The notes: generated from the letters alone by a model not told the origin. A DNA stretch of 64,000 nt from Escherichia coli (GCF_044324875.1 NZ_CP172185.1); one strand, 5' to 3'. Counted from the first letter of the stretch, positions 3,897 through 64,000 are shown. Numbers and translations are program-made.

Positions 3897-3932
3897 TCAT
3901 GACTCCATCAATCGAACGCTGCCGCGGCGTAA

Positions 3933-4919
3933 CTAGTTGCCAGAAGCCAGCGAGGTTAGTTGCGCAAGCAGTTTCGCTGGTTCATCACCTGAAAGCTGTG
4001 CGTCTACAGGCAAATACCACCAATTTTCTTCTGCAAAGGCCCGGCATTTCACCGCATCTTTTTCAGTCATTACCAGCGTTTGCCCGGCGTTTACCAACGC
4101 GCTGACATCCGCATGGTTCAAAGACTGATGATCGGCCAGCGGTACACATTTTTCCGGTTGTACGCCGCACATCTTCAGCGTGGCAAAAAAGCGCGGCGGA
4201 TGTCCAATCCCCGCCATCGCCACTACATGTTCAAGCTGAGCAACGTCACAACGCGTACCGGTACGTAAATTCACCGCCTGACCCGGCAGCAGATGCATGG
4301 GGATTTCACCGCTGCGGGGGACACCGCCGTTGACGATTACCGCATCAACCGACTTTAAGCGCCCCGCTCGCTCACGCATTGGCCCCGCCGGCAACCACCA
4401 ACCATTGCCAAAGCGACGCACACCATCAATAACGACAATTTCCACATCACGCGCCAGACGGTAATGCTGTAAACCGTCGTCGGTTACGATGATCTGCACA
4501 TCAGGGTGTTGCGCCAGAATGGCTTTTACCGCATCAGAACGCACGGGAGAAACCGCAACGGGCGCGCCAGTGCGTTGATAAATCAACACAGGTTCATCAC
4601 CCGCCTGTGCTGTGGTGGTATCTGCCGACAATAACAGCGGATAAGATTCAGCCTTACCACCATATCCCCGCGATACGACCCCCACGCGAATACCGCGCTG
4701 TTGCAGCTGTTCCACCAGCCAGATAACGACCGGGGTTTTTCCGTTGCCGCCTGCGGTGAGATTACCAACCACGACAACCGGTACGGGGGCACGCCAGGCG
4801 CGCTTCAGTTTTAGTTTATAGCAAAGACGGATCGCGCCACTCACCAGGCCATACAACCAGGAGAGTGGCAGCAATAGCCGCCACAAAGGGGATTCACCAG
4901 ACCAGATTTTTTCGATCAT
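3933..4919 (-). CDS. lpxK: Tetraacyldisaccharide 4'-kinase
   Basis: 328-aa ORF with P-loop [14 protein letters not shown]; overlaps msbA stop. Confidence 0.96.
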
Positions 4920-25943: not shown

Positions 25944-26257
25944 GAATTAAAACCGTGAGGAAGTTCAAATTTCATGCGCATCATGCCACCGCCAAAAACA
26001 TTGTCAATGGGTGAAAATACGCGCATATCGCAGCGGAGGTATTATCGATTTATATTACTCATTCATAACGCTAATGCTGGAGAGACGATTAATCTCATCT
26101 GATTGTTTTTATTGATCTAACACAAATTTCATACGCTTCGTTCAGTCGAAAAATTTCATGGTCACAGCAAACTCATATTTCCCGTCTATGCTTTCAGAGC
26201 AATGCATCGCGTCTGACCGATTTCAGACGTACCACTGACTCTCGAAAGGAGAAGAGG

Positions 26258-26884
26258 ATGACCAAACCGTATGTTCGTCTTGATAAAAATGATGCTGCCG
26301 TTTTGCTTGTTGATCACCAGGCTGGTTTACTTTCCCTTGTACGGGATATCGAACCCGATAAGTTTAAAAATAACGTGCTGGCGCTGGGCGACCTGGCTAA
26401 GTATTTCAACTTACCTACTATTCTTACCACCAGTTTTGAAACCGGTCCTAACGGCCCATTAGTTCCAGAACTGAAAGCACAGTTCCCCGATGCACCTTAC
26501 ATTGCTCGCCCGGGCAATATTAACGCCTGGGATAACGAAGATTTTGTAAAAGCTGTCAAAGCGACAGGTAAAAAACAGTTAATTATTGCCGGTGTGGTAA
26601 CCGAAGTTTGCGTGGCATTCCCGGCGCTTTCAGCCATTGAAGAAGGGTTTGATGTATTTGTCGTGACTGATGCATCAGGGACCTTTAATGAAATTACCCG
26701 GCATTCGGCGTGGGATCGCATGTCGCAAGCTGGTGCGCAATTGATGACATGGTTCGGCGTGGCTTGCGAGCTGCACCGTGACTGGCGTAATGATATTGAA
26801 GGACTGGCGACGTTGTTCTCTAACCACATTCCTGATTATCGTAATTTGATGACCAGTTATGACACATTAACGAAGCAGAAATAA
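26258..26884 (+). CDS. ycaC: Isochorismatase-family hydrolase YcaC
   Basis: 208-aa ORF MTKPYVRLDKNDAAVLLVDHQ. Confidence 0.94.
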   Translation: MTKPYVRLDKNDAAVLLVDHQAGLLSLVRDIEPDKFKNNVLALGDLAKYFNLPTILTTSFETGPNGPLVPELKAQFPDAPYIARPGNINAWDNEDFVKAVKATGKKQLIIAGVVTEVCVAFPALSAIEEGFDVFVVTDASGTFNEITRHSAWDRMSQAGAQLMTWFGVACELHRDWRNDIEGLATLFSNHIPDYRNLMTSYDTLTKQK

Positions 26885-26889
26885 AAGAG

Positions 26890-26911
26890 AACCGGGGTCG
26901 AAACCCCGGTT
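26890..26911. terminator. Bidirectional hairpin between convergent ycaC and dmsC
   Basis: AACCGGGGT-CGAA-ACCCCGGTT perfect inverted repeat. Confidence 0.6.
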
Positions 26912-26919
26912 GTTACTGA

Positions 26920-27783
26920 TTAGCTTGCGACGGCCATCCCCACGGTCATATGCAAACCATAGAATACGCCGCGACCGATTAATTCTCCTGCCAGAAGCAG
27001 AATGAATGAGACGGATAGTAGCGGAACCGCAGGCTGATAACCTTTTAGCTGTGGTGCAATCCACAAACACAGGGCAACAGCCAAAAGCACGATCCGCCAG
27101 GACATCAGCGCACCATAGTCCGGCACCAGCGCTGCGGCCTGCTGCACAGAACTATGAATAGTCGCCAGCTCTGCGCCCTGCATCACTGACATCACGCCAC
27201 TCACTACCAGGGCCAGTACAGAAATGGCTGGCAGCAGACGCATCGCCCAGCCATCGACGCCAGCCAGACTCAGCAACAGGTAACCCAGTAACGGGCCGCC
27301 CATGAACATCGTCAGGAAGAAGCCCATCGGTGTCCAGATGCTGTACCAGGTCGGAACGGTATCGATGCTGTTATAGACACGCACCATCATCCAGACAAAG
27401 ACTACGCCAAGAACCATCGTCACCACCAGCCACAGCGTACGCAATGCCGGTGACAGCTTGTTCAGCATTGCCAGTAACCAGCCGATGCCACCAACAGCAA
27501 AAAAGATCGAACCGCTGGCGATTTCGTTACTGAGTGCTGAAGCCCCTACCCGGTTGAGCGAGTTAAAGGCGCGCATCGGTGAACCAAGATGAAGCATAGA
27601 GGCGATAAAGCCAATGCCCATCAGCACCCATAAACCAAACATGCAGGCAATAACACGCTGCTGGGCTTCTGCTCGCAGGTCGCCTTTGAGCAGCGCCAAA
27701 GCCAGAACGATAAAACCACCCGCTACACATTGCCCGAAGACCGTGAAGATCATCAGCGGCCATTCATGCCATCCACTTCCCAT
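26920..27783 (-). CDS. dmsC: DMSO reductase membrane anchor subunit
   Basis: Start at ATG (MGSGWHEWPLMIF) with AAGGAGG SD; 287 aa. Confidence 0.94.
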   Translation of the reverse strand: MGSGWHEWPLMIFTVFGQCVAGGFIVLALALLKGDLRAEAQQRVIACMFGLWVLMGIGFIASMLHLGSPMRAFNSLNRVGASALSNEIASGSIFFAVGGIGWLLAMLNKLSPALRTLWLVVTMVLGVVFVWMMVRVYNSIDTVPTWYSIWTPMGFFLTMFMGGPLLGYLLLSLAGVDGWAMRLLPAISVLALVVSGVMSVMQGAELATIHSSVQQAAALVPDYGALMSWRIVLLAVALCLWIAPQLKGYQPAVPLLSVSFILLLAGELIGRGVFYGLHMTVGMAVAS

Positions 27784-28412: not shown

Positions 28413-30857
28413 TTACACCTTTTCAACCTGAACAAGGTTTGTATGTGACGGATTCCCCTTAGCGAGAGGAGACGGACGTTGAGTGGTCAGTACATTGATA
28501 CAACCGCCCTTATCGACACGTTTTGCATCCGGGTCATACCAGGCACCTTCACCCAGTGCGACCACACCCGGCATCATTCGTGGCGTCACTTTCGCCTCAA
28601 TATGAACCTCACCACGATCGTTAAAGATCCTGACTTTATCGCCGTTGTTGATACCGCGTTTTTGCGCATCAAGCGGGTTGATCCACATTTCCTGACGGCA
28701 AGCCGCTTTCAGCACATCAACGTTGCCGTAAGTTGAGTGAACGCGAGATTTATAGTGGAAACCCGTAAGCTGCAGCGGATATTGTTTGTTCAGCGGATCC
28801 TGATAACTTTCAAAGCCCGGCGTATAGATCGGCAGTGGATCGATCACATCGCCTTCTGGCAATTCCCAAGTCGCGGCAATGTCAGCCAGCGCCTGCGAAT
28901 AAATCTCAATTTTACCCGATGGCGTGGTCAGTGGATTTGCCTGAGGATCTTCACGGAAAGCTTTATAAGCAACGTGGTGCCCTTGTGGGTCGCGCTTTTT
29001 AAAGATCCCCTGCTTGCGGAACTCTTCAAACGTTGGCAGTTCAGGAATCGCTTCCCGCGACTGGGCATACAGATGCCGCATCCACTCTTCCTGTGTACGG
29101 CCTTCAGTAAACTGTTGCTCAACGCCAAGACGTTTTGCCAGTTCGCTGGTCATTTCATAGATGGTCTTACATTCAAAGCGCGGTTTAATCACCTGATCGT
29201 TGAAAATCACGTAAGACATATTCCCGCAGGATGCATCCAGTGCAAAGTCCATCTGTTCGGAAGCGGTGCAGTCAGGCAGCAGGATGTCAGCATATTTCGC
29301 TGATGAGGTCATGTGGCAGTCGATAACCACAATCAGCTCGCACTTCTTATCATCCTGAAGGATTTCATGGGTACGGTTGATTTCAGAATGCTGGTTAATC
29401 AGGCAGTTACCGGCATAGTTCCAGATCATTTTGATCGGCACATCCAGCTTATCTTTCCCGCGCACACCATCACGCAGCGCTGTCATTTCCGGGCCACGTT
29501 CAATGGCATCGGTCCACATAAACATCGAAATGCTGGTCTGGATCGGGTTTTCGAGGGTCGGCATACGGACAAACGGTAAGCTGTATGAACCTTCACGCGC
29601 GCCGCTGTTGCCTCCGTTAATACCAACGTTACCGGTCAGAATCGCCAGCATCGAGATAGCACGGGTTGCGATTTCACCGTTAGCGTGACGCTGCGGGCCC
29701 CATCCCTGGCTGATAAACGCCGGTTTGGTACTACCGATTTCACGAGCCAATTTGATGATTTTGTCTGCCGGAACACCGGTGATTTGCGAGGCCCATTCCG
29801 GCGTTTTAGCCACGCCATCTGGCCCTTCACCCAGAATATAAGCTTTATAGTGACCATTTTTCGGCGCACTGGCTGGCAGTGTTTTCTCGTCGTAGCCAAC
29901 GCAATATTTATCGAGGAATGCCTGATCCACCAGGTTTTCGGTGATCATGACATACGCCAGACCGTTAACCAGTGCGGCATCTGTTCCTGGACGAATAGGG
30001 ATCCACTCATCTTCGCGCCCGGCACCGGTGTCGGTATAGCGCGGATCGATGATGATCATGCGGGCATTAGATTTCTGACGCGCCTGTTCAAGATAGTAAG
30101 TCACCCCACCGCCACTCATTCGCGTTTCGCCAGGGTTATTACCAAACAGCACTACCAGCTTACTGTTTTCGATATCCGACGGGCTGTTACCATCTGCCCA
30201 GCCGCCATAGGTATAGTTCAAACCTTCCGCAATTTGCGCGGAAGAGTAGTCACCGTAATGGTTCAGATAACCGCCGCAGCAGTTCATCAGGCGAGCGACC
30301 AGGGTATTTCCCGGCGGCCAGGAGCGGGTCATGGTGCCGCCCAGCGTACCGGTACCATAGTTCAGATAGATAGACTCGTTGCCGTACTCTTTGATCAGGC
30401 GCTGCATATTGGTCGCGATGATGTCGTAGGCTTCTTCCCAGCTAATGCGCTCGAATTTGCCTTCACCGCGCGCCCCGACTCGTTTCATCGGATATTTCAG
30501 GCGGTCCGGATTGTAGACACGGCGACGCATGGAACGCCCACGCAGACAGGCGCGCACCTGGTGCAGGCCGTCATAGTTGTCATCGCCGGTATTATCCGTT
30601 TCAACATATTTAATTTCACCGTCCACAACGTGCATACGTAGCGGGCAGCGACTACCACAGTTAACTGTACAGGCGCTCCAGATAACCTTTTCGTCTGATT
30701 TTGCCGGAAGGGCACTATCAACAGCGTGCGCAATCCGACTAAAAGGTAATGTTAACGCGCTGCTTGCCATTGCCAGGCCGCCGATCGCTGTCGTTTTTAC
30801 CAAACCACGGCGACTCACCTCAGCAGCCAATACCGCATCAGGGATTTTCGTTTTCAT
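28413..30857 (-). CDS. dmsA: DMSO reductase molybdopterin catalytic subunit (Tat signal)
   Basis: 814-aa ORF with twin-arginine leader (SRRGLVKTTAIGGLAMA). Confidence 0.97.
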   Translation of the reverse strand: MKTKIPDAVLAAEVSRRGLVKTTAIGGLAMASSALTLPFSRIAHAVDSALPAKSDEKVIWSACTVNCGSRCPLRMHVVDGEIKYVETDNTGDDNYDGLHQVRACLRGRSMRRRVYNPDRLKYPMKRVGARGEGKFERISWEEAYDIIATNMQRLIKEYGNESIYLNYGTGTLGGTMTRSWPPGNTLVARLMNCCGGYLNHYGDYSSAQIAEGLNYTYGGWADGNSPSDIENSKLVVLFGNNPGETRMSGGGVTYYLEQARQKSNARMIIIDPRYTDTGAGREDEWIPIRPGTDAALVNGLAYVMITENLVDQAFLDKYCVGYDEKTLPASAPKNGHYKAYILGEGPDGVAKTPEWASQITGVPADKIIKLAREIGSTKPAFISQGWGPQRHANGEIATRAISMLAILTGNVGINGGNSGAREGSYSLPFVRMPTLENPIQTSISMFMWTDAIERGPEMTALRDGVRGKDKLDVPIKMIWNYAGNCLINQHSEINRTHEILQDDKKCELIVVIDCHMTSSAKYADILLPDCTASEQMDFALDASCGNMSYVIFNDQVIKPRFECKTIYEMTSELAKRLGVEQQFTEGRTQEEWMRHLYAQSREAIPELPTFEEFRKQGIFKKRDPQGHHVAYKAFREDPQANPLTTPSGKIEIYSQALADIAATWELPEGDVIDPLPIYTPGFESYQDPLNKQYPLQLTGFHYKSRVHSTYGNVDVLKAACRQEMWINPLDAQKRGINNGDKVRIFNDRGEVHIEAKVTPRMMPGVVALGEGAWYDPDAKRVDKGGCINVLTTQRPSPLAKGNPSHTNLVQVEKV

Positions 30858-31153: not shown

Positions 31154-32158
31154 TTACTGGTCGATGGACAGTTTATGGACACTTTCAGCCAGCGGATTAA
31201 AGCTGATCGCATCCTGTAAAAAGTCCGGTGAAAAATGCGCATACGTCATCGTTTGCTGAATCGTGGCGTGACCCAGGATCCTCTGCAACGTGACGATGTT
31301 CCCGCCGTTCATCATGAAATGCGTGGCGAACGTGTGCCGCATGACATGCGTGGCCTGCCCTTTGGGTAAGTCGGGCTTCACCTCCTGAAGGATCTCCCTG
31401 AAACTGAGATAATCAACCTGATATAACAGGCCGGTCCGGCGGGTTTTAATTAACGGCACAACGGAATCAGCTACAGGAACCGAGCGCGATTTCCCGTTCT
31501 TTGTGTTAAAGAACGTCACCCTGTTACCCACGATGTGTTCCCCGCGAAGCGTTGACGCCTCTTTCCATCTGGCCCCGGTCGAAAGGCACAGAATGGCAAT
31601 GCGTCGTGCATCACCCTCAAGCCGTTTCAGAAGGCGATCAATCTCGTCATCTGAAAGAAAGGCCATTTCTGTATTCTGAACCTTGAGTTTACGTATTCCG
31701 CGCACAGGGTTTTCGTTATGATAAACCTCCGCGTCAATTAACAACGAAAACATCGCAGATAAGGCGCACAGGTCGCGATTGATACTGGACGGCATCAGTC
31801 CCGCCTGCAACTTATCCGAGCGATACTCAATCACGAATTTTCGTGTCATCTGGCTGGCGCGCGGGTCCCCCATTTCACGTATCACCTTCTCCAGTCTGGT
31901 TCTGTAGGTATCACCATATGCCTGATTACGACCATCAAGCATCCACCACACCTCAATCAGTTCTGATAACCGCCGTTGATCGGCGGGCCTTGCCTGCCAC
32001 GGGTTATTGTGGAAATTCTGAAGAACGTATCTTTCGAATTCCTGCGCCTTTGATTTCAGGGTGAAAATCTTACGAATCCGCCTTCCTCCCGCCCCCTGAG
32101 GCCTTACATCAACCTGATAACGTCCGTCTTTGAGTTGCTTAATCGACATGATCAGCAC
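31154..32158 (-). CDS. int: Phage tyrosine integrase (P2 Int-like)
   Basis: 334 aa; conserved ILCLSTGARW...ATHVMRHTFATHFMMNGG...LQRILGH...YAHF (R, H-x-x-R, Y catalytic residues). Confidence 0.93.
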   Translation of the reverse strand: MLIMSIKQLKDGRYQVDVRPQGAGGRRIRKIFTLKSKAQEFERYVLQNFHNNPWQARPADQRRLSELIEVWWMLDGRNQAYGDTYRTRLEKVIREMGDPRASQMTRKFVIEYRSDKLQAGLMPSSINRDLCALSAMFSLLIDAEVYHNENPVRGIRKLKVQNTEMAFLSDDEIDRLLKRLEGDARRIAILCLSTGARWKEASTLRGEHIVGNRVTFFNTKNGKSRSVPVADSVVPLIKTRRTGLLYQVDYLSFREILQEVKPDLPKGQATHVMRHTFATHFMMNGGNIVTLQRILGHATIQQTMTYAHFSPDFLQDAISFNPLAESVHKLSIDQ

Positions 32159-40761: not shown

Positions 40762-40860
40762 TGCGTATTCCGCTCTATTCGATCACGGATTGGCATCGAA
40801 GTCCGATCAGCGATTCGCATCCATTCGATCAACCGGGAACTTAACTTTTTCTACCGCTTT

Positions 40861-41616
40861 TTAACGCGTTTTTTCGCTGCTTTCCACTACCGGGGGATTT
40901 TTCCTCAGTGACTCTCCCTGAAGGACCACTCGGTGTGAGTTATGTACCAGTCTGTCCAGGATGGCATCTGCTGTTGTTGGGTTCTCCATCAGACCATGCC
41001 ATTTATCTACCGGGAACTGGCTTACCACTATCGTGCTGCTTTGTCCGTAACGATCCTCTATGAGCTCCAGAAGGTCATTACACTGGGCGTTACTTAACTG
41101 TTCCAGCCCCAGATCGTCCAGGATTAGAACCTGTATTTTTTGCAACTGTTTCAGATATTTCAGCCAGCTGCCATCAACACGTCCCTGAGCCAGTTGTTCC
41201 AGTAATCGCCCGGTTCTACAGTACCGGACGCTGTGTTTCTGTCGACATGCCTGTTCGCCCAGCGCATTGGCTATCCAGCTCTTGCCACATCCTGTCGGAC
41301 CGGTTATCAGCAGGTTTTTCCTGTGGGTTATGTAGTGGCCGTTCAGCAGTTCTCTCATCTGTTCAGCCCGCAGACCTCTTGAGGCCGGATAGCGCAGCCC
41401 TTCCGGTGTTGCCTGGTATTTCAGGCCGGCATTTTTTCTCAACCGTGCCACACGGCTGTTTTCCCTGCTCAGAAGCTCGTCATCAACCAGCAGCGTCAGC
41501 CTTTCCTCGAACGACAGTTCGTCGTAGGTCTGAGGCGTTTCCCGCTGCCGTATCAGGCTCCCGGCCATCGCCGGGAGTTTCAGTTGGGTCAGTTTGTTTA
41601 ACAGGTTATCACTCAT
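40861..41616 (-). CDS. istB: IS21-family helper ATPase IstB
   Basis: Start MSDNLLNKL; Walker A GPTGCGKS; 251 aa. Confidence 0.93.
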   Translation of the reverse strand: MSDNLLNKLTQLKLPAMAGSLIRQRETPQTYDELSFEERLTLLVDDELLSRENSRVARLRKNAGLKYQATPEGLRYPASRGLRAEQMRELLNGHYITHRKNLLITGPTGCGKSWIANALGEQACRQKHSVRYCRTGRLLEQLAQGRVDGSWLKYLKQLQKIQVLILDDLGLEQLSNAQCNDLLELIEDRYGQSSTIVVSQFPVDKWHGLMENPTTADAILDRLVHNSHRVVLQGESLRKNPPVVESSEKTR

Positions 41617-41632
41617 ACTGTTGTTCCTTCTG

Positions 41633-43168
41633 TCAGTGGTAGTAGCCCGGACCACGCAGGTTTTCATGCTCTGAAGCATATGCCGGATGTTGTTCGCCCT
41701 GGCGGGATAATGGAAGCTCCAGGTTCTCCCGATGGTGACGCAGCAGATTGTCGATAAAGCGTCTGTCAGGGGCGTTATAGTGCAGGGCAACGTAACAGGC
41801 CTTTTCCAGCCGTTCCGGGCCGTATTTTTTCTGAAGTGCCAGCAGCCCCAGAACTGCACGATAAGCCAGTTCCGGATGGGGTTTTGCCTTCAGCATGGAT
41901 TCAACCACCCGGCCTGTGGACGGGCCCGTACGTTTTCCCTGCTCGATCAGGCGTTCCGGTGTCCATGTCCCGTGCTGCCGGTGGCGCTCTGGCATGTGAA
42001 GCGGATTGGTTGTGTGTTTATATTCATGTGTGCTGCGCGGATGTTGCGCCACACACTGCCCCTTGTGCCAGAGCTGTACCACCGACTGCCCCGCCTTCAG
42101 TGACAGACGCTGACCGACCAGTTCGTGTGGAACGGAGTACCAGTGACGGGCATATTCAACGTGGTAGTCAGGGCCAACCTTCACAGCTTTGTATTCCGTG
42201 TATTCATAAGGTGCCAGAGGCAGCGGAGAGAGTGCTGGCGCATCCAGTATGCGGAAGCGTTCTGCACGGGTTTGATTGCCGTACCCCTTCATTGGCCGGT
42301 TATTCATGTCTGTCAGTAACTCCCTAAGGCGCGCATTCAGCGCCCTGAGCGTGTGGAAGGTTTCATTACGGATGCGGGCAAGAAGCCATCGTTCAACGAT
42401 GAGGACGCCGTTTTCTGCTTTTGGTTTATCTTTAGGTTTGCGTGGTCGGGCCGGGATGATAACCGTGCCATAGTGCTCAGCCAGTGCCTGATAACTGTCG
42501 TTGATGACAGGCTCATATCGATCGGCCTTTTTCACTGCGCTTCTGAGGTTATCGGGGATGAGCAGCTTCGGTACGCCGCCCAGGAAGGTCAGGCAACGGC
42601 TGTGGGCATTTAACCATGACATCATGTCCTGACCTTCGCACGCTTCAACGTAGGTATAGTTGGACGCCCCCATTACGGCCACGAAGATTGCCACGCGGCG
42701 TATCTCACCGGTGTCCGGATTAATAACAGGAACCGTAGGACCACAGAAGTCGATAAAAAGCTTTTCGCCGGCACGATGCTCCTGGCGCATGGAGAGACGT
42801 CGCGTTTTTTTCCACTCCCGGTAGCAACGGCAGAAGTGCGAGTATCCCATCGCTTTGTTACCCGCCTGTGCCTTGTATTCCATCCACAACAGTTGCCGCG
42901 TCACACCTGGTTTTCTCATTTCCGTATCGAAGTACAACATGTCAGGCATTACAAGCTCTGATGCAAAGGTGTCTTTGGGCGGAAAAATGAGTTTCTCCAG
43001 CGTGTCATGGGATATATCAGCAGGTAATGGCCATGACAGAGAAGAGGCTTTGAAGCGGGCAAGAACCTCAAAAACGGTTGAGGCGCTGATGTGTAACGTC
43101 AGTCCGATACAACGGTTAGTCAGCTTCTTGTCGAACTTGAGCTGAAGGATCTTAAAACAGGTTTCCAT
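41633..43168 (-). CDS. istA: IS21-family transposase IstA
   Basis: Start METCFKILQ with AGGAG SD; DDE integrase core region; 511 aa. Confidence 0.92.
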   Translation of the reverse strand: METCFKILQLKFDKKLTNRCIGLTLHISASTVFEVLARFKASSLSWPLPADISHDTLEKLIFPPKDTFASELVMPDMLYFDTEMRKPGVTRQLLWMEYKAQAGNKAMGYSHFCRCYREWKKTRRLSMRQEHRAGEKLFIDFCGPTVPVINPDTGEIRRVAIFVAVMGASNYTYVEACEGQDMMSWLNAHSRCLTFLGGVPKLLIPDNLRSAVKKADRYEPVINDSYQALAEHYGTVIIPARPRKPKDKPKAENGVLIVERWLLARIRNETFHTLRALNARLRELLTDMNNRPMKGYGNQTRAERFRILDAPALSPLPLAPYEYTEYKAVKVGPDYHVEYARHWYSVPHELVGQRLSLKAGQSVVQLWHKGQCVAQHPRSTHEYKHTTNPLHMPERHRQHGTWTPERLIEQGKRTGPSTGRVVESMLKAKPHPELAYRAVLGLLALQKKYGPERLEKACYVALHYNAPDRRFIDNLLRHHRENLELPLSRQGEQHPAYASEHENLRGPGYYH

Positions 43169-43406
43169 AGTGCTCCTGGATTTTCTCTTTCTGGACATTG
43201 ACGTCTCCACTGGTTTAAACACGGCAATGGAGACTGTGGTGAAAAGAGTTAATTCCCGGAGTGACTGGCAGGATGCCAATCAATGATCGGAAGCATGCCA
43301 AATCGTGATCGATTGTGATGCCAAACTGTGATCGGAGATGGATGCCAAATCATGATCGATTCGAATGCCAAACTGCGATCGATTCAGATGCCATTTTGCA
43401 TCAGTC

Positions 43407-48118: not shown

Positions 48119-48180
48119 TTCTCCCCCTCATGTGATTCAGGCAGTTTACTCACCCCTTACAGGCCTCCTGCCATGCCCGG

Positions 48181-48204
48181 TGTTGTCGGCATTCGCTTAC
48201 AACA
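48181..48204 (+). promoter_or_regulatory. Late-promoter activator site of Ogr/Delta type in divergent P-O intergenic region
   Basis: TGTTGT-N12-ACAACA dyad (contains TGT-N12-ACA) ~70 bp upstream of scaffold gene ATG. Confidence 0.55.
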
Positions 48205-48272
48205 AACGCACTTTGTCTGTCCCTGCCCCGTTTTGCCATCATGAGACAAACGATCATCACGAGGGCCCGACA

Positions 48273-56738: not shown

Positions 56739-58973
56739 ATGAGCACGAGAAAATTCAGAACCCTTATCACCGACATCGGGCTGGCAAAGCTGGCCGCAAC
56801 AACGGCGCCTGGCGGTAGACCTGTACGCCTTACGCACATGGCTGTAGGGGACGGCAATGGAGAGCTTCGTCAGCCGCAGAAAAACCAGACATCGCTTTAC
56901 AATGAGGTTTGGCGCCAGTCTGTCAACCGCGTCTTCACCGACCCGGAGAACCCGAACCGCCTCATCGCCGAACTGGTCATTCCTCCTGAAACCGGCGGAT
57001 TCTGGGTGCGTGAAATTGGTGTGTTTGATGATACAGGTACAATGATTGCAGTAGGAAATACCGCTGAAAGTTACAAGCCCACCAGAGAGGAAGGTTCAGG
57101 GCGGGCGCAGATATTCCGTGCAGTAATCACCGTCACCTCCGACGCCGTGGTGGAACTGGTCATGGACACAACAACAATTCTGCCGACCACGGACTACATT
57201 GATGAGAAAATGGCGGAACACGCACGTTCCCGTAACCACCCTGACGCGACACTGACAGAAAAAGGATTCACCCAACTGAGCAGCGCCACAAACAGCACCT
57301 CTGAAACACTGGCCGCCACACCGAAGGCCGTCAAGGCTGCATATGACCTTGCAGCCGGTAAAGCACCCGCCAGCCACACCCACCCGTGGAATCAGATAAC
57401 TGGTGTGCCATCAGCCTCGCTGACGGCAAAAGGCACCGTACAGCTGAGCAGTGCCACAAACAGTGAGTCAGAGACTGAGGCGGCCACCCCCAAAGCGGTT
57501 AAAGCCTTACACGATATGGTGACGAGCAAGTATACAGGACAGGATGCAACCACCGGACGCAAAGGCATCGTACAGCTGAGCAGCGCCACAAACAGCAATT
57601 CCGAAACACTGGCGGCCACACCGAAGGCAGTAAGTGATGCACTGAGCATGGCGTTCGTGAAGCCAACAACATCCCTGGGGGAAACAGACCTGAACACTCT
57701 GGGGCGTAAGGAAGACGCGGGAGATTATTACCAGCAGAGTGACTCAGGTGCGAGAACAGACAGAAACTATCCTGTAGAGAAGGCAGGAGAGTTACGCATC
57801 CGTGTTGGTGCATGGGGATTCTGCCAGCATGAATACACGAGCTGGGATCCGCCACGAAAATTTATCAGGACAGTTACCGGAAACTTTAACGGTAACGGCC
57901 CATGGTCAGAGTGGGTGGAGGTGACAAACACAGATGCAACAACTGGACGCAAAGGCATCGTACAGCTGAGCAGCGATACAAACAGCAATTCCGAAACGCT
58001 GGCGGCCACACCAAGAGCCGTCAAGGCTGCATATGACCTTGCAGCCGGTAAAGCACCCGCCAGCCACACCCACCCGTGGAATCAGATAACAGGTGTGCCA
58101 TCAGCCTCGCTGACGGCAAAAGGCACCGTACAGCTGAGCAGTGCCACAAACAGTGAGTCAGAGACTGAGGCCGCCACCCCCAAAGCGGTTAAAGCCTTAC
58201 ACGATATGCTGACGAGCAAGTATACAGGACAGGATGCAACCACCGGACGCAAAGGCATCGTACAGCTAAGCAGCGCCACAAACAGCAATTCCGAAACGCT
58301 GGCGGCCACACCAAAAGCTGTTAAAGCTGCGTATGACCTTGCCAACAGCAAAGCCTCGGCAGCCCACACTCATCGCTGGGCTCAGATCACAGACGCCCCT
58401 GTTTTTTCGTCTGTTGCCCGCGTCATCATGGGTAAACAAAGCATAAAAGATATTCTTGATTACTTTGGTTTAGGAGAAGGCTCGACGCTGCCAGTTGGCG
58501 TACCCGTTCCGTGGCCTTCGTCAAGACCACCTGAGGGGTGGTTACAGTGCAACGGTGCCGCATTCACGCGTACAAAATACCCAAAACTGGCGGTGGCCTA
58601 CCCTGACCTCAGGCTACCAGATTTGCGCGGGGAATTTATTCGTGGATGGGATGACCTGCGAATGATTGACAGGGGACGCTTATTGTTATCCACACAGGAA
58701 GCAACATATATTTGTACCGCCATACAGGCGTACCACGGCGTAGCGGGAGGTGCAGATATTCAGGCAGGGATTTCATTTGCATCACATGATAACGACATCA
58801 TAAACATAACCCCTGATCAACCCAGAACCGGTAACGGCATCCTGTACGGCACAAAACCAGTTGACAGATGGGCAATAGCCAGAGCCGGTAAGCTGGTGAG
58901 TAATGAAAAAGACAGATGGATAGCGATCAGACCGCGCAATATCGCTTTTAATTATATTGTGAGGGCAGTTTAA
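56739..58973 (+). CDS. Tail fibre protein (P2 gpH-like) with internal repeat array
   Basis: 744 aa; repeated TGRKGIVQLSSATNSNSETLAATPKAVKAAYDLA units; C-terminal receptor-binding region. Confidence 0.9.
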   Translation: MSTRKFRTLITDIGLAKLAATTAPGGRPVRLTHMAVGDGNGELRQPQKNQTSLYNEVWRQSVNRVFTDPENPNRLIAELVIPPETGGFWVREIGVFDDTGTMIAVGNTAESYKPTREEGSGRAQIFRAVITVTSDAVVELVMDTTTILPTTDYIDEKMAEHARSRNHPDATLTEKGFTQLSSATNSTSETLAATPKAVKAAYDLAAGKAPASHTHPWNQITGVPSASLTAKGTVQLSSATNSESETEAATPKAVKALHDMVTSKYTGQDATTGRKGIVQLSSATNSNSETLAATPKAVSDALSMAFVKPTTSLGETDLNTLGRKEDAGDYYQQSDSGARTDRNYPVEKAGELRIRVGAWGFCQHEYTSWDPPRKFIRTVTGNFNGNGPWSEWVEVTNTDATTGRKGIVQLSSDTNSNSETLAATPRAVKAAYDLAAGKAPASHTHPWNQITGVPSASLTAKGTVQLSSATNSESETEAATPKAVKALHDMLTSKYTGQDATTGRKGIVQLSSATNSNSETLAATPKAVKAAYDLANSKASAAHTHRWAQITDAPVFSSVARVIMGKQSIKDILDYFGLGEGSTLPVGVPVPWPSSRPPEGWLQCNGAAFTRTKYPKLAVAYPDLRLPDLRGEFIRGWDDLRMIDRGRLLLSTQEATYICTAIQAYHGVAGGADIQAGISFASHDNDIINITPDQPRTGNGILYGTKPVDRWAIARAGKLVSNEKDRWIAIRPRNIAFNYIVRAV
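57328..57625 (+). repeat. Copy 1 of ~300-bp near-identical direct repeat inside tail-fibre gene
   Basis: Near-identical to 58018-58315 (offset 690 bp) with five single-base differences noted in the aligned core. Confidence 0.8.
58018..58315 (+). repeat. Copy 2 of ~300-bp direct repeat inside tail-fibre gene
   Basis: See copy 1. Confidence 0.8.
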
Positions 58974-59584
58974 TGAGTAACACTGCAGTTCTGGATGAAA
59001 ACGGTATCGCCACTTTCGCAGGCGATATCACTGTATATCACTATGATGAGGAAACCCGGGAATACACCTCATCCTCTGTGGAGTATCTCGCCCTGGGGGT
59101 GGGTACCCCGGCACATTCATGCGCCGATGCCCCGCCAGAGGCAATGCCGGGTTACGTGATTTGCCGGACGTCCACGCTGGACGGGTGGGAGTATGTCCCC
59201 GATCATCGTGGAGAGACGGTATACAGCACAGAGAACGGTAATCCGGTCCAGATTACCCAACCAGGTGACTACCCGGAAGGGACAACGACAAAACAGCCTG
59301 CCACACCATGGGATACCTGGAACGGTGAGGCGTGGGTAACCGATACAGAACGGCAGCAAGCCGAAGAGCTGGAGGTTGCCAGACAGCAACGCAAGGAACG
59401 GGTGGATCAGGCGATGAAGTCCATCGACCTCATCAACCTTAAGTTGCGGGCAGGTCGCAGTCTGACACCAGAAGAAACGGCAAAACTGAATGCCGTGCTG
59501 GATTATATCGACGAGCTGAACGCACTGGATATCAGCACGGAGCCTGAAATAAGCTGGCCGGAAACACCACCAGAAATGGAATGA
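58973..59584 (+). CDS. Tail fibre assembly chaperone (P2 gpG-like)
   Basis: 203 aa; start overlaps H stop. Confidence 0.87.
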   Translation: MSNTAVLDENGIATFAGDITVYHYDEETREYTSSSVEYLALGVGTPAHSCADAPPEAMPGYVICRTSTLDGWEYVPDHRGETVYSTENGNPVQITQPGDYPEGTTTKQPATPWDTWNGEAWVTDTERQQAEELEVARQQRKERVDQAMKSIDLINLKLRAGRSLTPEETAKLNAVLDYIDELNALDISTEPEISWPETPPEME

Positions 59585-59654
59585 GCGGGGAAAAGGAACG
59601 GGCATTCATAAATAATTCATCATGCAGGTGCCGCAAGAATGCGGCACATTACCT

Positions 59655-60143
59655 TCACATCAGATCATTTACGCCGCTTACTGTGGTATTCCAGACCGAA
59701 CTTAACTTCCCTTTCATTCCCGAAAGCATATCAGACACCGGCGACGAGGCCATACTCTCCCGCAAATCCTCATCACAGCGTTCCAGACTGACAGTGAACT
59801 CAATTTTTTTGGCCTTACCGTGGCGGTCAAGTTCGCTTCGCGTTGTGCGGACAGCCGTTATCACATACATGCCGTATATCTGCCCCACACCGTCAATCAG
59901 CGGCCATGGGCGACCAGTGTAAGCCTGCGTCGTTAAAAGGCTGAGGGAAACCTCACCGCCGGTAATTTCGGGATAAAGCACACCGGACAACGTGATCTGG
60001 TCGTCACCCGCCCCGATATACTGCCAGCTGGCCGAACGATTGATGCGTTCATTTTTAACGTGGCGCCAGGTTTTATTATGTTGCAGTTGTTGATGAGGCA
60101 GCGTACGCAACTCAAAAACAAACATGCCGTAAATCATCATCAT
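59655..60143 (-). CDS. Tail protein U-like
   Basis: 162 aa; follows tape-measure gene on minus strand; conserved ITLSGVL...GRPWPLIDG...YGMYVIT region. Confidence 0.82.
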   Translation of the reverse strand: MMMIYGMFVFELRTLPHQQLQHNKTWRHVKNERINRSASWQYIGAGDDQITLSGVLYPEITGGEVSLSLLTTQAYTGRPWPLIDGVGQIYGMYVITAVRTTRSELDRHGKAKKIEFTVSLERCDEDLRESMASSPVSDMLSGMKGKLSSVWNTTVSGVNDLM

Positions 60144-60154
60144 GCGAGGTACTC

Positions 60155-63100
60155 CTAATCTCTGTCACGGAAACTACCGACTGTCTGGCGGATACGGCGT
60201 TCCATTTCCGCACGGACGGCATCACCCACCATTTTTGCCAGTTCGCGCGGGTTTTGCGTGTGAACATCATGCAGGTGAATATGCAGTTCGCCAGTTAATC
60301 CCCATGGTGCCGGCTCACTCTGGCGCGGTCGGGGCGATGCGGGGGATATGGGCTGGCGCACAGCCTCAACCACCGGACGGGATGTTGCCGCCATCACTGG
60401 TGTCATTAGCGGGGAGAACGTCGGCATGACATCGTGAGTCATAACCGGTTTGATCACCGGCGGAACCACTGGCGTAATATTACCGGACAGTACCGGACGG
60501 ACGACCGGAGGAATAACCGGCACATTATTCACGGACACCACCGGCTTCACGACCGGCGACACGTTCGCCGTGGTGGATATCAGCGGCGAAACACTGACAG
60601 GCGGTGGCGCTGGCAGCGGTGGCAACGAAGGCACACTGACCGACGGCACCTGCGGCAGTCTGACAGGTGGCTCACTGACACTACCCGGTAACAGGGAAGC
60701 TGCTCGGTTAAAGCGTTCCTCCTTCCACTCACCACGAACGGCCAGCGCTTCCGGCAGGTTTTTAAAGATAATATCGCCGGGACCAGCGCGTTTTTTCGCC
60801 TGTTTCGCCTCATCCAGCAGACCACCGGTGTTATCGACGATTTTGTTCAGGCGGCGCATAGTGCCGGTATTCTCCCCCGTCAGGGGTGGTTGCCCCCCTT
60901 TGGGTTTTTCGCCGTCTTTTTTATCCTCGTCCTTTTTCGGCGGATTAATGACGTTAACATCCGCCAGAAGCATGGCAGCTTTCTCGTTCAGCAACTCCTT
61001 CTGTTTTAGTTCTTCCGCCTTTTTCCGGGCGCGCTCAACCGCCGACGGAATCAGCCCGAGTTTTTCCAGCACCCGGGTTAATGAGTCAATCAGCAGCGTA
61101 ACCGGACCGGTCACCAGATTGCTGATAAACTCCCCTACCTTCTGCCCGAACGTACGCCCGGCTTCCGTGCACTTGTCCAGCTCATCCTTTGTTGTGCTTA
61201 CCGGCGCGAACAAATCCACGAACCACTGCCACACACGCCCGATTGTCTGCCCGACATACTCAAACAGCGGTCCCAGTGGTGCCACAGCCTCGCGCAGTGG
61301 CGTAAGCCCCTGCCACAGGCCGGACAAGAACCCGCCCACGACAGCCTTCAGCTGGTCCCAGTGCCGCCAGATAAGCACTGCCGCACCGACCAGTGTCGCC
61401 ACCACAAGGCCCACCGGACTTAACAGAAAACCCAGCGCCCCGCCAAGTGCGCCCACCGCACCACTCACCATCCCCCACAGTGCGGGCAGACCTGACAGTC
61501 TGAGCGCCAGTATTCCGATACCGCGCCCCAGTGAAATCAGTGCGCCGCCAGGTGAAGTGAACGCAGCCAGCAGACCACCACGCAGCGCGCCAAGTCCCGC
61601 CTGCACACCACGAAGCCGCCCCGCAACTACGCCCAGCAGTGCAGCAAACCGTCCGGCACCGGAGGTGATACCGACAAACAGCACGCGCCAGCCACCGATA
61701 CCGCCCAGCGGACCACCGAGTACGCCGCGCAGCTGCGTCAGTAACGGCAGCGCACGACCGAGGCCGGATGTGCCGGTCAGCAGGGCAAACCCAAGACGCA
61801 GTTTTGCCAGCGGCCCCATCAACACACCAGTGGCAAGTGACAGCGCCCCCATGGCCGCAACCGCAGCCAGCAGTACACCACCGGCAATCAGCAGTTGTTT
61901 TGTCAGTTCAGGGTGCGCCTGAGCCAGCGCGGTGACTTTCGCAATAACCCGGGTGAACGACTGCGTGACAGAACGCAGCGGCCCGTCAACGAGGTCAGCG
62001 ACACGGATACGCAGTCCTTCCCATGCGCTGTTCAGTGATTTCAGGTCACCGTCCAGGTTATCAGCCATAACACGGGCAGTGTGATTAAGTTCCCCGGTGG
62101 CCAGTTCAATCTCCTGCGTAAGACGGGGAAGATTATTTTCCCCCGCCGCAGTGACAAGATTCATCAGGGAAACATAGGACTCCTGCCCGGCAATAGCCCT
62201 GAAAAAGGAGACCTGCGCGGCATTACCGTATTTTCGGGTGGCCTGGTACAGCTCATTCAGGATATTTTCCATCCGGCGCATGTTCCCGTAAGCATCCTGC
62301 GTCTCCACGCCAAGCTCTTTCAGTGCCATTGCAGCGGCCTTCGGCGGATCAACCAGACGTGACAGACTGGCACGCAGCGCCGTACCTGCATCACTTCCAC
62401 GGATCCCCACACTGCCAAGGACACCCGTCATGGCTGCCGCCTGTTCAAGGGACAGGCCAAGTGAAGCTGCAACCGGACCCGTGTACTTCATGGTTTCACC
62501 CAGTGAACGGAGATCCGTATTGGTTCGTGTGAAGGTGGCGGCCAGCGTGTCACCCACGCGATCCATCTGGTCAGCGGACAGACCAAACTGTGTGAGGATA
62601 TTCGAACTGATATCGGCAGTCTGTCCCAGGTCCATCCCTGCAGCCATTGCCAGATCAAGCACGCCGGGTAGCGCCGCCTGTATGGCCTGTGGTGTGAAGC
62701 CGGCCATGGCAAGGAACGCCTGACCGCTGGCAGCATCACCGGCGGTAAACTGCGTTTCAGAGCCCAGCTTAATGGCCTGTTCGCGCAGCGCCTTAAACTG
62801 CGGACTGTTTTTGTCAATACGGGTCAGCGCCTGGACGCGTGACATCTCCTTACCAAAACTGACCGCCGGTTGCAGGAAACGTCCGGCCGCATAGCCGCCT
62901 GCCGCCGCCGTACCAACCGCCGTAAGTCCGACCGTTTTAAGTTTTCCCGCCGTCTCCTGAGCACGGGAATATTGCTGGCGTGCCTGCGTGACACGTGCCA
63001 GCGCCTGCCGTTCGCGTTCCAGCTGGTCGTTGTATTGCTGTGTTCGCCGTATGGCCTGTTGAATGGTGTTGTCACTGCCGGAAAGCGCAATACCGTGGCG

Positions 63101-63466
63101 CCGCAGCTCACCACCCAGTTCGCGCATTCGCTGAACTTCACGCGCACGGACCTCATTGAGACGCTCAAGTTTGAGGCTCAAATCGTTCATCAGCTTTTTC
63201 TGTTTGTCAGACAGCACGGTTCCGGCGCGCTGAATTTGCTGAAGTGCGCTTAACTGGCGTTGTGCCCGGGCAATGCCGTTTCCGGCCTTGTTTGCAGCCT
63301 CGCGGGCGCGATCAAATGAACGGGCGTGGCGTTCCAGGTTTTTGATCGCACCCTGCGTTCTCTGTATGGAGTCGCCAAGCTGGCCCATCATGCGACGGGC
63401 GTTTTCGGTGGGACGGGTCAGCCTGTCAACAGCGCTGAAGGCGACCCGTATATCAAGCGTTTTCAT
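60155..63466 (-). CDS. Tail tape measure protein (P2 gpT-like), with C-terminal Pro/Val-rich repeats
   Basis: About 1100 aa; start set at ATG (MKTLDIRV) that overlaps the stop of the predicted E' frameshift extension; upstream GTG alternative at 63502. Confidence 0.88.
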   Translation of the reverse strand: MKTLDIRVAFSAVDRLTRPTENARRMMGQLGDSIQRTQGAIKNLERHARSFDRAREAANKAGNGIARAQRQLSALQQIQRAGTVLSDKQKKLMNDLSLKLERLNEVRAREVQRMRELGGELRRHGIALSGSDNTIQQAIRRTQQYNDQLERERQALARVTQARQQYSRAQETAGKLKTVGLTAVGTAAAGGYAAGRFLQPAVSFGKEMSRVQALTRIDKNSPQFKALREQAIKLGSETQFTAGDAASGQAFLAMAGFTPQAIQAALPGVLDLAMAAGMDLGQTADISSNILTQFGLSADQMDRVGDTLAATFTRTNTDLRSLGETMKYTGPVAASLGLSLEQAAAMTGVLGSVGIRGSDAGTALRASLSRLVDPPKAAAMALKELGVETQDAYGNMRRMENILNELYQATRKYGNAAQVSFFRAIAGQESYVSLMNLVTAAGENNLPRLTQEIELATGELNHTARVMADNLDGDLKSLNSAWEGLRIRVADLVDGPLRSVTQSFTRVIAKVTALAQAHPELTKQLLIAGGVLLAAVAAMGALSLATGVLMGPLAKLRLGFALLTGTSGLGRALPLLTQLRGVLGGPLGGIGGWRVLFVGITSGAGRFAALLGVVAGRLRGVQAGLGALRGGLLAAFTSPGGALISLGRGIGILALRLSGLPALWGMVSGAVGALGGALGFLLSPVGLVVATLVGAAVLIWRHWDQLKAVVGGFLSGLWQGLTPLREAVAPLGPLFEYVGQTIGRVWQWFVDLFAPVSTTKDELDKCTEAGRTFGQKVGEFISNLVTGPVTLLIDSLTRVLEKLGLIPSAVERARKKAEELKQKELLNEKAAMLLADVNVINPPKKDEDKKDGEKPKGGQPPLTGENTGTMRRLNKIVDNTGGLLDEAKQAKKRAGPGDIIFKNLPEALAVRGEWKEERFNRAASLLPGSVSEPPVRLPQVPSVSVPSLPPLPAPPPVSVSPLISTTANVSPVVKPVVSVNNVPVIPPVVRPVLSGNITPVVPPVIKPVMTHDVMPTFSPLMTPVMAATSRPVVEAVRQPISPASPRPRQSEPAPWGLTGELHIHLHDVHTQNPRELAKMVGDAVRAEMERRIRQTVGSFRDRD

Positions 63467-63616
63467 GCTCTGCGTTCCCGCTGCGAAGGGCCGCCCGCTC
63501 ACGCCAGGCGACCACCTCGCCGGGATCCATCAGGAAGATTTCAGCGGGAGACCAGTTGAAAATAACGGCGATATCCGCCACAAAGTCTTCAATATGCTCA
63601 AAGGGCACGACGGTTA

Positions 63617-63979
63617 TCAGCCTGCCGTCGCCGCCACGCTCTTCCCGCCAGAGTCCTGACCGGCCAAAAAATTAACCGCCACCCCGCACAGCTGAATAAA
63701 ATCAGCGGACCCCATGCGCTTAAGCAGAACCTCGTCCAGTCGCGGCGAAGTGACGCGCGGGAGTAACTCAAACATCGCGTCCGTTTTCATGTTCAGCACG
63801 TCAAGCAGTGACAGCCCGCGCAGTGAACCGGCCTGCTGTACAGCAGGCGTGATTTCCACATACGTGATTTTTTTGTTACCGAGCACAAGGGGCGTTTTCA
63901 GCGTCACGCCGCGCTCACTGGTCACGTCCGCCGCATCAGCACCGTCAGTAACAGGGGCAACAACCGGATTTTCTTTCAT
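63617..63979 (-). CDS. Tail tube-associated protein E-like (zero-frame product)
   Basis: 120 aa; immediately upstream of tape measure; contains slippery heptamer near 3' end. Confidence 0.72.
   Translation of the reverse strand: MKENPVVAPVTDGADAADVTSERGVTLKTPLVLGNKKITYVEITPAVQQAGSLRGLSLLDVLNMKTDAMFELLPRVTSPRLDEVLLKRMGSADFIQLCGVAVNFLAGQDSGGKSVAATAG
63665..63671 (-). other. Candidate programmed -1 frameshift site (T TTT TTG) for E/E+E'
   Basis: Minus-strand AAT TTT TTG in E frame; -1 frame stays open ~63 codons and stops (TGA) overlapping tape-measure ATG. Confidence 0.55.
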
Positions 63980-64000
63980 GCATAAAACCTCAAATCAGGG

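Follow-up and report, generated by a model that had tools for sequence, protein, structure and literature searches.

An inverted tail-gene block of the P88 type in a P2-like Escherichia coli prophage, with a predicted shared late-promoter site between sheath and D

In phage P2, the seven tail genes of the F operon (FI-FII-E-E'-T-U-D) are co-directional with H-G, D is the last gene of the operon, and ogr lies downstream of D. Near the end of a 64,000-nucleotide stretch of E. coli DNA (NZ_CP172185.1; the window), a P2-like tail region departs from this order, and the question is whether it belongs to a damaged prophage or to an intact one that is organized differently. An earlier note placed H and G on the plus strand and the tape measure, U and E on the minus strand, and proposed an inversion of the tail module, a junction of two prophage segments or loss of D, any of which would make tail assembly doubtful. 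The strand assignments, E' included, were confirmed by the positions of the open reading frames, and the gap of about 70 bp with a hairpin that the note had described between G and U proved to be 70 bp exactly. The features concerned are listed below; L001 is a genome that is 99.9% identical.

56739..58973, plus strand: H-like tail fibre gene (P2 H equivalent), ORF of 744 aa; L001 has "tail fiber protein" annotated at the corresponding position
58973..59584, plus strand: G-like tail fibre assembly gene (P2 G equivalent), 203 aa; phrog_105 "tail fiber assembly", E = 2e-87, and L001 annotation
59585..59654, no strand: convergence spacer from the G stop to the U stop
59628..59647, no strand: hairpin GTGCCGCA-AGAA-TGCGGCAC, whose GC-rich stem of 8 bp encloses a 4-nt loop; separated from the U stop by 7 nt
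59655..60143, minus strand: gpU homologue (tail protein), 162 aa; phrog_76; 50% identity to P2 gpU, E = 4e-46
60155..63466, minus strand: tape measure gene gpT, 1103 aa, ATG at 63466; phrog_28, E = 1e-181
63453..63671, minus strand: E' extension frame, entered through a -1 frameshift at T TTT TTG (63665-63671); "GpE family phage tail protein" in L001
63617..63979, minus strand: gpE homologue (tail assembly chaperone), 120 aa; phrog_103, E = 4e-31

The rightward baseplate/fibre operon ends with the G-like gene, preceded by an H-like gene that carries internal repeats of about 350 bp (57273-57622 and 57963-58312; identity, 95.7%), and U is the last gene of the inverted block that faces it. The -1 frameshift at T TTT TTG and the overlap with T are shared with P2; when both frames were translated, the E' frame was open to 63453 and overlapped the T ATG. 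For T, the ATG at 63466 was taken as the start, a longer ORF of 1115 aa being available from an upstream GTG. The protein aligns end to end with T of phage P88 (55% identity) and contains two internal expansions, and its reading frame is unbroken both in the window and in L001, where PGAP nevertheless marks it "pseudo." The PHROG families agree with the tail gene identities, and Rfam gave no match between 56000 and 64000.

The region past 64000 was read in near-identical genomes (junction identity, at least 99%) rather than in the source genome. In L001, the window end is followed by tube and sheath on the minus strand and then by D and ogr on the plus strand, phrog_55/phrog_23 being assigned to the tube and sheath pair, both of which lie outside the window:

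L001 25531..26049, minus strand: tube gene (FII)
L001 26049..27332, minus strand: sheath gene (FI)

D starts 1993 bp past the equivalent of the window end, on the plus strand, in at least five genomes. It is full length, with 46% identity to P2 gpD over residues 10 to 356 of 363, and is followed by an Ogr homologue of 83 aa (PGAP name, ogr/Delta-like), an Ogr-type C4 zinc-finger activator that shares 42% identity and the CPLC...C..C motif with P2 Ogr. Between U and G, no ORF resembles D. The earlier observation that no D follows U thus holds inside the window and fails beyond it, and the proposed loss of D is contradicted by a full-length D, together with ogr, just outside; the downstream sequence that the note had pointed to places both genes past tube and sheath, and neither is itself inverted. 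We infer that tube, sheath, D and ogr are present in the source genome as well, which past 64000 is expected to carry a 161-bp sheath/D spacer with GTTGTCTCCTGACAGCGACAACAAA. The tail module is that of a P2-like contractile tail, with FI and FII adjacent, an E/E' frameshift overlapping the T start, and an intact frameshift site, T, U and D (D as read in the near-identical genome). The prophage is one element between integrase and ogr, its late genes of the P2 type form a full set, and its GC content is continuous at 52 to 63%.

Compared with P2, 186, phiCTX and Burkholderia KS5, in which these genes are collinear, the whole of FI-FII-E-E'-T-U lies inverted, as a single block flanked by G and D, and the proposed inversion of the tail module is therefore borne out. 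The resulting order is H-G -> <- U-T-E'-E-FII-FI | D-ogr ->, in which the FI-to-U block lies opposite to H-G and converges on G, while D and ogr diverge from sheath. When the junction was compared with a phage collection, megablast returned only a partial fibre-assembly match, and relatives surfaced by blastn at lower identity. The inverted order was also found in P88, PhiR44_2, phiSM, phiT5282H, 3LV2017 and the prophage of E. coli JX21CE33; Kp4845-1 (unannotated) and KSP20 (a partial record) show the sheath/D junction alone. Among 5426 complete E. coli genomes, 1163 contain the divergent sheath/D junction in one piece, and none has the U of the window lineage joined collinearly to D. P88 forms plaques (burst size, about 65), and its tail is contractile and measures 137 to 140 nm (PMC5285337); phiSM is a functional phage (PMC6456863). 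These results show that the P88-type order is fixed and widespread and that infectious virions with contractile tails can be made with it. The doubt that the earlier note cast on tail assembly is refuted, since P88 is functional with exactly this order and with D encoded elsewhere. The arrangement is already known in that it is present in public phage records; our literature search found no explicit description of the block inversion or of a pD promoter.

The closest counterparts are P88 (Peduoviridae, genus Xuanwuvirus), PhiR44_2, P884B11 and Citrobacter phiSM, whose gene order is identical to that of the window lineage and which resemble it in the size, central site and flanking hexamers of the sheath/D spacer and in a hok-like gene near the right end. 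The sheath and D proteins of the two are 77% and 79% identical, respectively. At the DNA level, P88 and the window lineage are only about 70 to 77% identical over the structural genes, the early region being largely unrelated. The genus level of the ICTV is about 70% nucleotide identity over the full length; the 70-to-77% figure covers the late genes, with little early similarity, and the right end of the prophage lies outside the window. The window lineage differs from the P88 group in that its G/U junction holds neither an invertible fibre segment nor an invertase. Compared with P88, its T has 168 aa more (1103 against 935 aa), its sheath carries an insertion of 33 aa, its hairpin has no U-tract, and the left half-site of the activator site described below reads TGT instead of TCT. 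Together, these observations leave us highly confident that the P2-like (Peduoviridae) prophage within which the window ends is intact and of the P88 type, and that a single ancestral inversion of six genes produced its order, which is fixed and functional.

Three other readings of the gene order were considered. A recent, strain-specific inversion or an assembly error that broke the F operon and left a defective prophage would account for an order unlike that of P2 and for the pseudogene flag on T in one genome, but the same order recurs in independent complete genomes and in isolated phages from several genera, the T ORF is intact, and the sheath/D spacer holds conserved promoter-like elements; these comparisons refute the explanation, which we regard as extremely improbable. 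No more weight can be given to the view that the G/U junction is the seam of two prophage fragments, with D lost, in a remnant or tailocin-like element. The convergent genes with their very short spacer, as well as the absence of D inside the window, would fit such a seam; however, D and ogr come after sheath in the near-identical genomes, for which the reading is thereby refuted, and the junction of two prophages is unsupported because the identical seam occurs within single autonomous phage genomes and because base composition is continuous across the element. The tail order is thus ordinary and not a defect, as it is the standard, working order of the P88 type, which makes up a large branch among P2-like phages, and D lies about 2 kb past the window end. 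The 6.2-kb tail block might instead be a programmed segment inverted by a Gin/Hin-type invertase, and here the relatives are suggestive: in them, a DNA invertase is located precisely where G meets U, and DNA switching at this place does occur in P88-type prophages. The part that switches, however, is the fibre segment, which, with its invertase, corresponds to the Gin/Cin/Hin/Pin fibre switches (Mu G, P1 C, e14 P) and switches in vivo. The tail block has no flanking inverted repeats that could act as crossover sites, no invertase is annotated in the prophage (L001 annotation), and the genomes were 1163 in one orientation and 0 in the other, so that a programmed switch is almost certainly not the explanation. 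The tail-block inversion is a fixed evolutionary rearrangement and not a switch.

The 70-bp G/U spacer is the left breakpoint of the ancestral inversion, and it corresponds to the Z/fun cargo slot of P2 (between G and FI). In relatives it is likewise a cargo slot, holding an invertible fibre segment (G' and H') with a DNA invertase in P88, phiSM and E. coli JX21CE33 and 253 bp in PhiR44_2. The hairpin in the spacer folds as predicted (minus-strand region, z = -2.4), and a perfect 8-bp stem with a loop of 3 to 8 nt is expected, by our estimate, in about 0.6% of 70-bp stretches. Assignment of 59628-59647 as an intrinsic (Rho-independent) terminator was rejected: the stem is present, neither strand has a U-tract or T-run, and a simple terminator scan did not call it. 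Stem-loops nevertheless lie 7 to 25 nt past the U stop in all seven lineages examined, five of which have canonical A/T-flanked terminators there, and the hairpin occupies the place at which relatives have their bidirectional terminator. Transcripts of G and U would converge and meet at a stem-loop, which in most relatives is a bidirectional intrinsic terminator and in the window lineage only a hairpin without a U-tract.

Neighbor-joining trees of sheath and D, which were small and without bootstrap, placed all nine inverted-type genomes in one clade, with the P88 group as the sister of the window lineage in each tree. The tail genes of HP1, which had been retrieved for use as an outgroup, are too differently arranged to inform. 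This clustering points to a single old inversion beneath the P88-type order. In such an event, FI-FII-E-E'-T-U would have been inverted once in a common ancestor together with the late promoter pF. One breakpoint would have separated G from the sequence upstream of pF and the second would have separated U from D, and D and ogr would have retained their original orientation. A search for inverted repeats at the block boundaries yielded nothing meaningful, the best block-spanning pair being 21 nt long with 81% complementarity and lying within coding sequence. That the neighboring invertase of relatives caused the inversion is pure speculation.

Inversion of the block would have set the pF activator site back to back with D, and we therefore turn to the sheath/D spacer, which is 161 bp in L001 and 151 to 157 bp in the other eight of nine genomes. 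The islands of conservation in it comprise a site in the middle and two hexamers that flank this site, predicted to be an Ogr-type activator site with the motif GTTGT-N12-ACAACAAA and two -10-like elements. The dyad TGT-N12-ACA within it (TGTCTCCTGACAGCGACA, L001 27409-27426) lies upstream of a late gene. A strict search with TGT-N12-ACA was discarded as a genome-wide criterion; it performed at chance level (8 found, 11 expected) and missed the annotated P2 sites, which read TGT-N12-CCA, and a lineage-specific extended motif was adopted for these reasons. This motif, GTT(G/C)T-N12-ACAACAAA, occurs exactly twice per genome (chance expectation, 0.06 to 0.14), in the P/O spacer and in the sheath/D spacer, and a third, pV-like activator site gave chance-level matches only. 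The two sites covary by lineage, both reading GTTGT in the window lineage and both GTTCT in P88; the left half-site is TCT rather than TGT in P88, phiT5282H and Kp4845-1. The first of the two lies within the window, where its spacer is the twin of the sheath/D spacer past 64000:

48119..48272, no strand: divergent P/O late-promoter spacer, 154 bp; one activator site in its middle, at 48182-48206

In late promoters that depend on Ogr, B or Delta, the site is centered about 55 bp upstream of the start, a -10 is present without a good -35, and transcription requires the activator and the alpha subunit of RNA polymerase. The geometry of the sheath/D spacer is close to that of mapped late promoters, with the -10-like hexamers at a fitting distance to either side. 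From the center of the site to the sheath ATG, the distance is 82.5 to 88.5 bp (85.5 bp in the window lineage, compared with 83 bp for P2 pF and 82.5 bp for 186 pJ), and to the D ATG it is 68.5 to 76.5 bp (79 bp for P2 pP). Eight of eight arms have, at columns 56 to 62, a hexamer whose second letter is A and whose sixth is T, and mapped P2 and 186 starts fall at columns 68 to 71. On the D side, the hexamer (aACCAT or gACCAT) makes a weak -10, with a short predicted leader of about 13 to 20 nt. In the P2 record, one central dyad is common to pP and pO, with starts 111 bp apart; the sheath/D spacer has the same geometry, as predicted from sequence, and in the window lineage its site is identical in sequence to the site of the P/O spacer. 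As a dyad for an Ogr-type zinc-finger activator, the pF site could serve both directions, like the pP/pO site of P2, and the -10-like element at mirror-image distance would give D its own Ogr-dependent late promoter. Since the spacer copies the shared-site design of pP/pO, the single activator site may well drive D in addition to sheath. On balance, we favor the broader proposal that the inversion turned a one-way pF site into a second bidirectional late-promoter hub, such that all late genes would be expressed from two Ogr-type sites (Q-P | O...G and U...FI | D-ogr) and D would have been rescued by capturing the back side of the dyad. If true, the P88-type phages would provide a clean example from nature of how a rearrangement can lead to promoter capture.

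D might instead have an independent promoter, for example one of the sigma-70 type, constitutive or early, or one within the 5' end of sheath, with the central site serving pF only. The poor match of the D-side hexamer to a -10 would fit, and there is a precedent in ogr/B just downstream, which has its own non-late promoter in P2 and 186. Yet the position and sequence of the D-side element are conserved among six or seven diverged lineages that vary around it, it lies as far from the site as the O-side hexamer of the P/O spacer does, and the spacer stays within 151 to 161 bp, so that we consider an independent D promoter unlikely, albeit worth bearing in mind. The literature that we searched contained no transcription start, footprint or reporter data for the sheath/D spacer of any P88-type phage.

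The main value of these findings is as a correction. Templates for prophage intactness that are built on P2 only would misscore very common E. coli prophages, of a class carried by about one in five E. coli genomes, as rearranged or D-less, and a PGAP pseudogene flag on an intact tape measure would strengthen the same error. The predicted activator site shared by pF and pD would be a small, testable addition to the P2/186 model of late-gene regulation and leaves the understanding of P88-type phages unchanged. Elsewhere in the window, an IS21-family insertion sits in an accessory gene of the prophage; the ORF at 40861..41859, for which a weak PADLOC match to "DrmD" had hinted at defense cargo, was identified by NCBIfam as the IstB helper ATPase of an IS21-family element.

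The final 7 kb of the window carry tail genes of a prophage, in which U, T, and E, on the minus strand, converge on G across a gap containing a hairpin, with 70 bp between the stop codons of G and U. The ORFs and this gap confirm the convergence described in the earlier note, and no D-like ORF was found between U and G among the ORFs of the window.

Prophage features in the window
40861..41859, minus: istB, IS21-family element
41633..43279, minus: istA, IS21-family element
48119-48272 (154 bp): P/O spacer of the window lineage, with a single, centrally placed site whose sequence type is that of the sheath/D site
56739..58973, plus: tail fibre gene
58973..59584, plus: fibre assembly gene (G); PHROG family agrees
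59628..59647: hairpin GTGCCGCA-AGAA-TGCGGCAC, within the 70-bp G/U spacer
59655..60143, minus: gpU homologue, 50% identical to P2 gpU; PHROG family agrees
60155..63466, minus: tape measure gene (T), 55% identity end to end with the P88 tape measure; PHROG agrees
63453..63671, minus: E' frame
63617..63979, minus: gpE; PHROG family agrees

The P2 record has the collinear order H-G-fun(Z)-FI-FII-E-E'-T-U-D-ogr, in line with the earlier note, and 186, phiCTX, and Burkholderia KS5 are also collinear. The region from 58500 to 64000 is present at ≥99% identity in 25 complete E. coli genomes, and the locus of E. coli NRZ14408 (L001) differs from it by six mismatches in 5.5 kb. Past the window-equivalent end, L001 continues with tube (minus), sheath (minus), a 161-bp spacer, a gpD homologue (plus), and an ogr/Delta-type zinc-finger gene (plus), followed by a hok-like gene and, further along, serS. 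The gpD homologue is full length and 46% identical to P2 gpD over essentially the whole length, and the Ogr homologue shares 42% identity with P2 Ogr and has the cysteine motif. In at least 5 of the near-identical genomes, the start of D lies exactly 1993 bp beyond the point that corresponds to the end of the window. Since D and ogr are found downstream in these genomes, D was not lost, as had been suggested, but merely lies outside the window. As read from the near-identical locus, FI-FII-E-E'-T-U is inverted as one unit between G and D, and of the explanations offered previously it is the inversion of the tail module that holds.

The sheath gene, spacer, and D were used together as a blastn query, and a match was counted when recovered as one co-oriented piece. 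The divergent sheath/D junction was present in 1163 of 5426 complete E. coli genomes, in Xuanwuvirus (P88, P884B11, PhiR44_2, and Citrobacter phiSM), in Enterobacter phiT5282H (Novemvirus), Klebsiella 3LV2017 (Reginaelenavirus), and the Klebsiella Kp48xx series (Reipivirus), and in Serratia KSP20. The complete order (H-G rightward, U-T-E'-E-FII-FI leftward, D-ogr rightward) is annotated in P88, PhiR44_2, phiSM, phiT5282H, 3LV2017, and the E. coli JX21CE33 prophage. Such a gene order is normal for a large branch of Peduoviridae, already sequenced and partly ICTV classified; explicit discussion of the inverted tail block was not found in a literature search. P88 is induced by mitomycin C, forms plaques (burst size, about 65), and has a contractile tail of 137 to 140 nm (PMC5285337), and phiSM, 76.8% identical to P88, is a functional temperate phage (PMC6456863). 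Working phages with the same order are just what the earlier note had named as refuting evidence, and they overturn its doubt about tail assembly. The phiSM paper calls the tails noncontractile, yet the genome encodes sheath and tube (PMC6456863). In E. coli O157:H7 and some other strains (EDL933, NZ_CP124740.1, 4761931-4763520, and similar records), the match covered only the sheath gene and about 230 bp at the beginning of D (query 5-1673), suggesting that a P88-type remnant whose D is truncated is present there. In OR565851.1 (Shae_phiSM), the label "late control gene D protein" is wrongly placed on the sheath gene and the label "ogr" on D; the D ORF of AB452988.1 (KSP20) is overextended into the sheath gene, and the sheath start of NC_049429.1 (phiT5282H) is overextended by 15 codons.

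The earlier note had also considered a junction of two prophage segments. GC content is continuous across the G/U junction and the same order occurs in whole phages, and a seam between two fragments was rejected. The tail block as an invertible switch was likewise rejected: the segment that flips at the G/U junction of P88-type prophages, in ST131 isolates, is a fibre segment and not the tail block (preprint 10.1101/2022.05.07.487787). When a hypothetical un-inverted junction was built by joining the window lineage's U directly to its D, it was found in one piece in 0 complete E. coli genomes, versus 1163 with the inverted junction. No inverted repeats were found at the block boundaries, and no DNA invertase is annotated in the prophage of L001. 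In small neighbor-joining trees of sheath and of D, built without bootstrap and rooted with phiCTX, the nine inverted-type genomes formed one clade separate from P2 and 186. The simplest account is that the block was inverted once, in the ancestor of this clade.

The copy in the window keeps the E/E' −1 frameshift site, T TTT TTG, with a −1 frame that stays open as far as a stop overlapping the T start, as is also the case in P2. PGAP labels T in L001 (21656-24967) "pseudo, missing C-terminus"; because the ORF is unbroken at 1103 codons in both the window and L001, this label is an annotation artefact, likely caused by two expansions within T compared with other tape measures. One of these (about aa 505-660) is hydrophobic and rich in Gly, Ala, and Leu, and the other (about aa 935-1030) is rich in Pro and Val. 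The tape measure has 1103 aa in the window lineage, compared to 935 aa in P88, and should tail length scale as it does in P88, a longer tail would be expected. The L001 sheath (26049-27332) has 427 aa, compared to 390 to 396 aa in the others, with a single 33-aa insertion at about residues 90 to 122 that is absent from the sheaths of P88 and all others in the comparison. The sole lesion seen in the prophage was the IS21-family element (about 40762-43400), far from the tail genes, which is flanked by a 6-bp target duplication in a small hypothetical gene of the accessory region. The NRZ14408 prophage lacks this element but has ISEc12 at a different site (L001, about 3764-6345).

The inversion leaves D without a codirectional gene upstream of it, and D would therefore need its own promoter within the spacer. 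This spacer, measured after start codon correction, is 151 to 161 bp in 9/9 genomes and contains three conserved islands, while the rest of its sequence has diverged. The middle island is the dyad GTT(G/C)T-N12-ACAACAAAA, and the outer two are short elements flanking it. The dyad center is 82.5 to 88.5 bp from the sheath ATG, matching P2 pF (83) and 186 pJ (82.5), and 68.5 to 76.5 bp from the D ATG, versus 79 for P2 pP. Seen from the sheath gene, the strong TTGTTGT half-site is promoter distal; this orientation, shared with P2 pF, pV, and pO, fits pF having moved with the inverted block. In 8 of 8 promoter arms, columns 56 to 62 of a common register hold a hexamer whose second base is A and whose sixth is T, and mapped P2 and 186 starts fall in columns 68 to 71 of this register; the D-side −10-like hexamer is weak. 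We propose a shared pF/pD activator site, in which the central Ogr-type site would drive pF leftward (FI to U) and a predicted pD rightward (D, perhaps ogr). This predicted site is the sole mildly new element. The P2 record offers a precedent: divergent pP and pO use one annotated activator binding site, with mapped starts 111 bp apart. The putative activator site covaries by lineage across the P/O and sheath/D spacers, reading GTTGT...ACAACAAA in both spacers of the window lineage and GTTCT...ACAACAAAA in both spacers of P88. When up to one mismatch was allowed, L001 (9689 and 27407), P88 (L002; 14214 and 33253), and PhiR44_2 each had exactly two copies of the extended motif, located in these two spacers, where 0.06 to 0.14 would be expected by chance; in the window it lies at 48182-48206. 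P88-type genomes seem to carry just two Ogr-type activator sites, both in the middle of a divergent spacer. A separate pV-like site was not found in these genomes, S and V overlap, and the baseplate/fibre genes may be transcribed within the O operon, unlike in P2.

At the G/U convergence point, a stem-loop follows the U stop by 7 to 25 nt in every lineage examined. In P88, PhiR44_2, phiSM, phiT5282H, and 3LV2017, it forms a canonical terminator with A and T tracts at its flanks, capable of working bidirectionally; in JX21CE33, a T-run lies on the U strand. The window hairpin occupies the same position but has a U-tract on neither strand and was not called in a terminator scan; it is probably a local terminator or 3'-end stabilizer. 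The junction also serves as a cargo slot, with an alternative fibre/assembly gene pair and a DNA invertase in P88 (L002, 24860-27564), phiSM (L009, 2100-4567), and JX21CE33 (L010, 2487-4416; frameshifted), and measures 253 bp in PhiR44_2 and 70 bp in the window (59585-59654). Within the tail fibre gene, two direct repeats of ~350 bp (57273-57622 and 57963-58312; 95.7% identical) encode repeated fibre motifs and could be recombination substrates that change fibre length. In L001, identical 18-mers, TGTCCAGTATCAATGACA, at 30795-30812 and 31444-31461, 649 bp apart, sit in an unannotated 2.6-kb stretch from the hok-like gene to serS, hinting at a direct repeat near the right end of the prophage.
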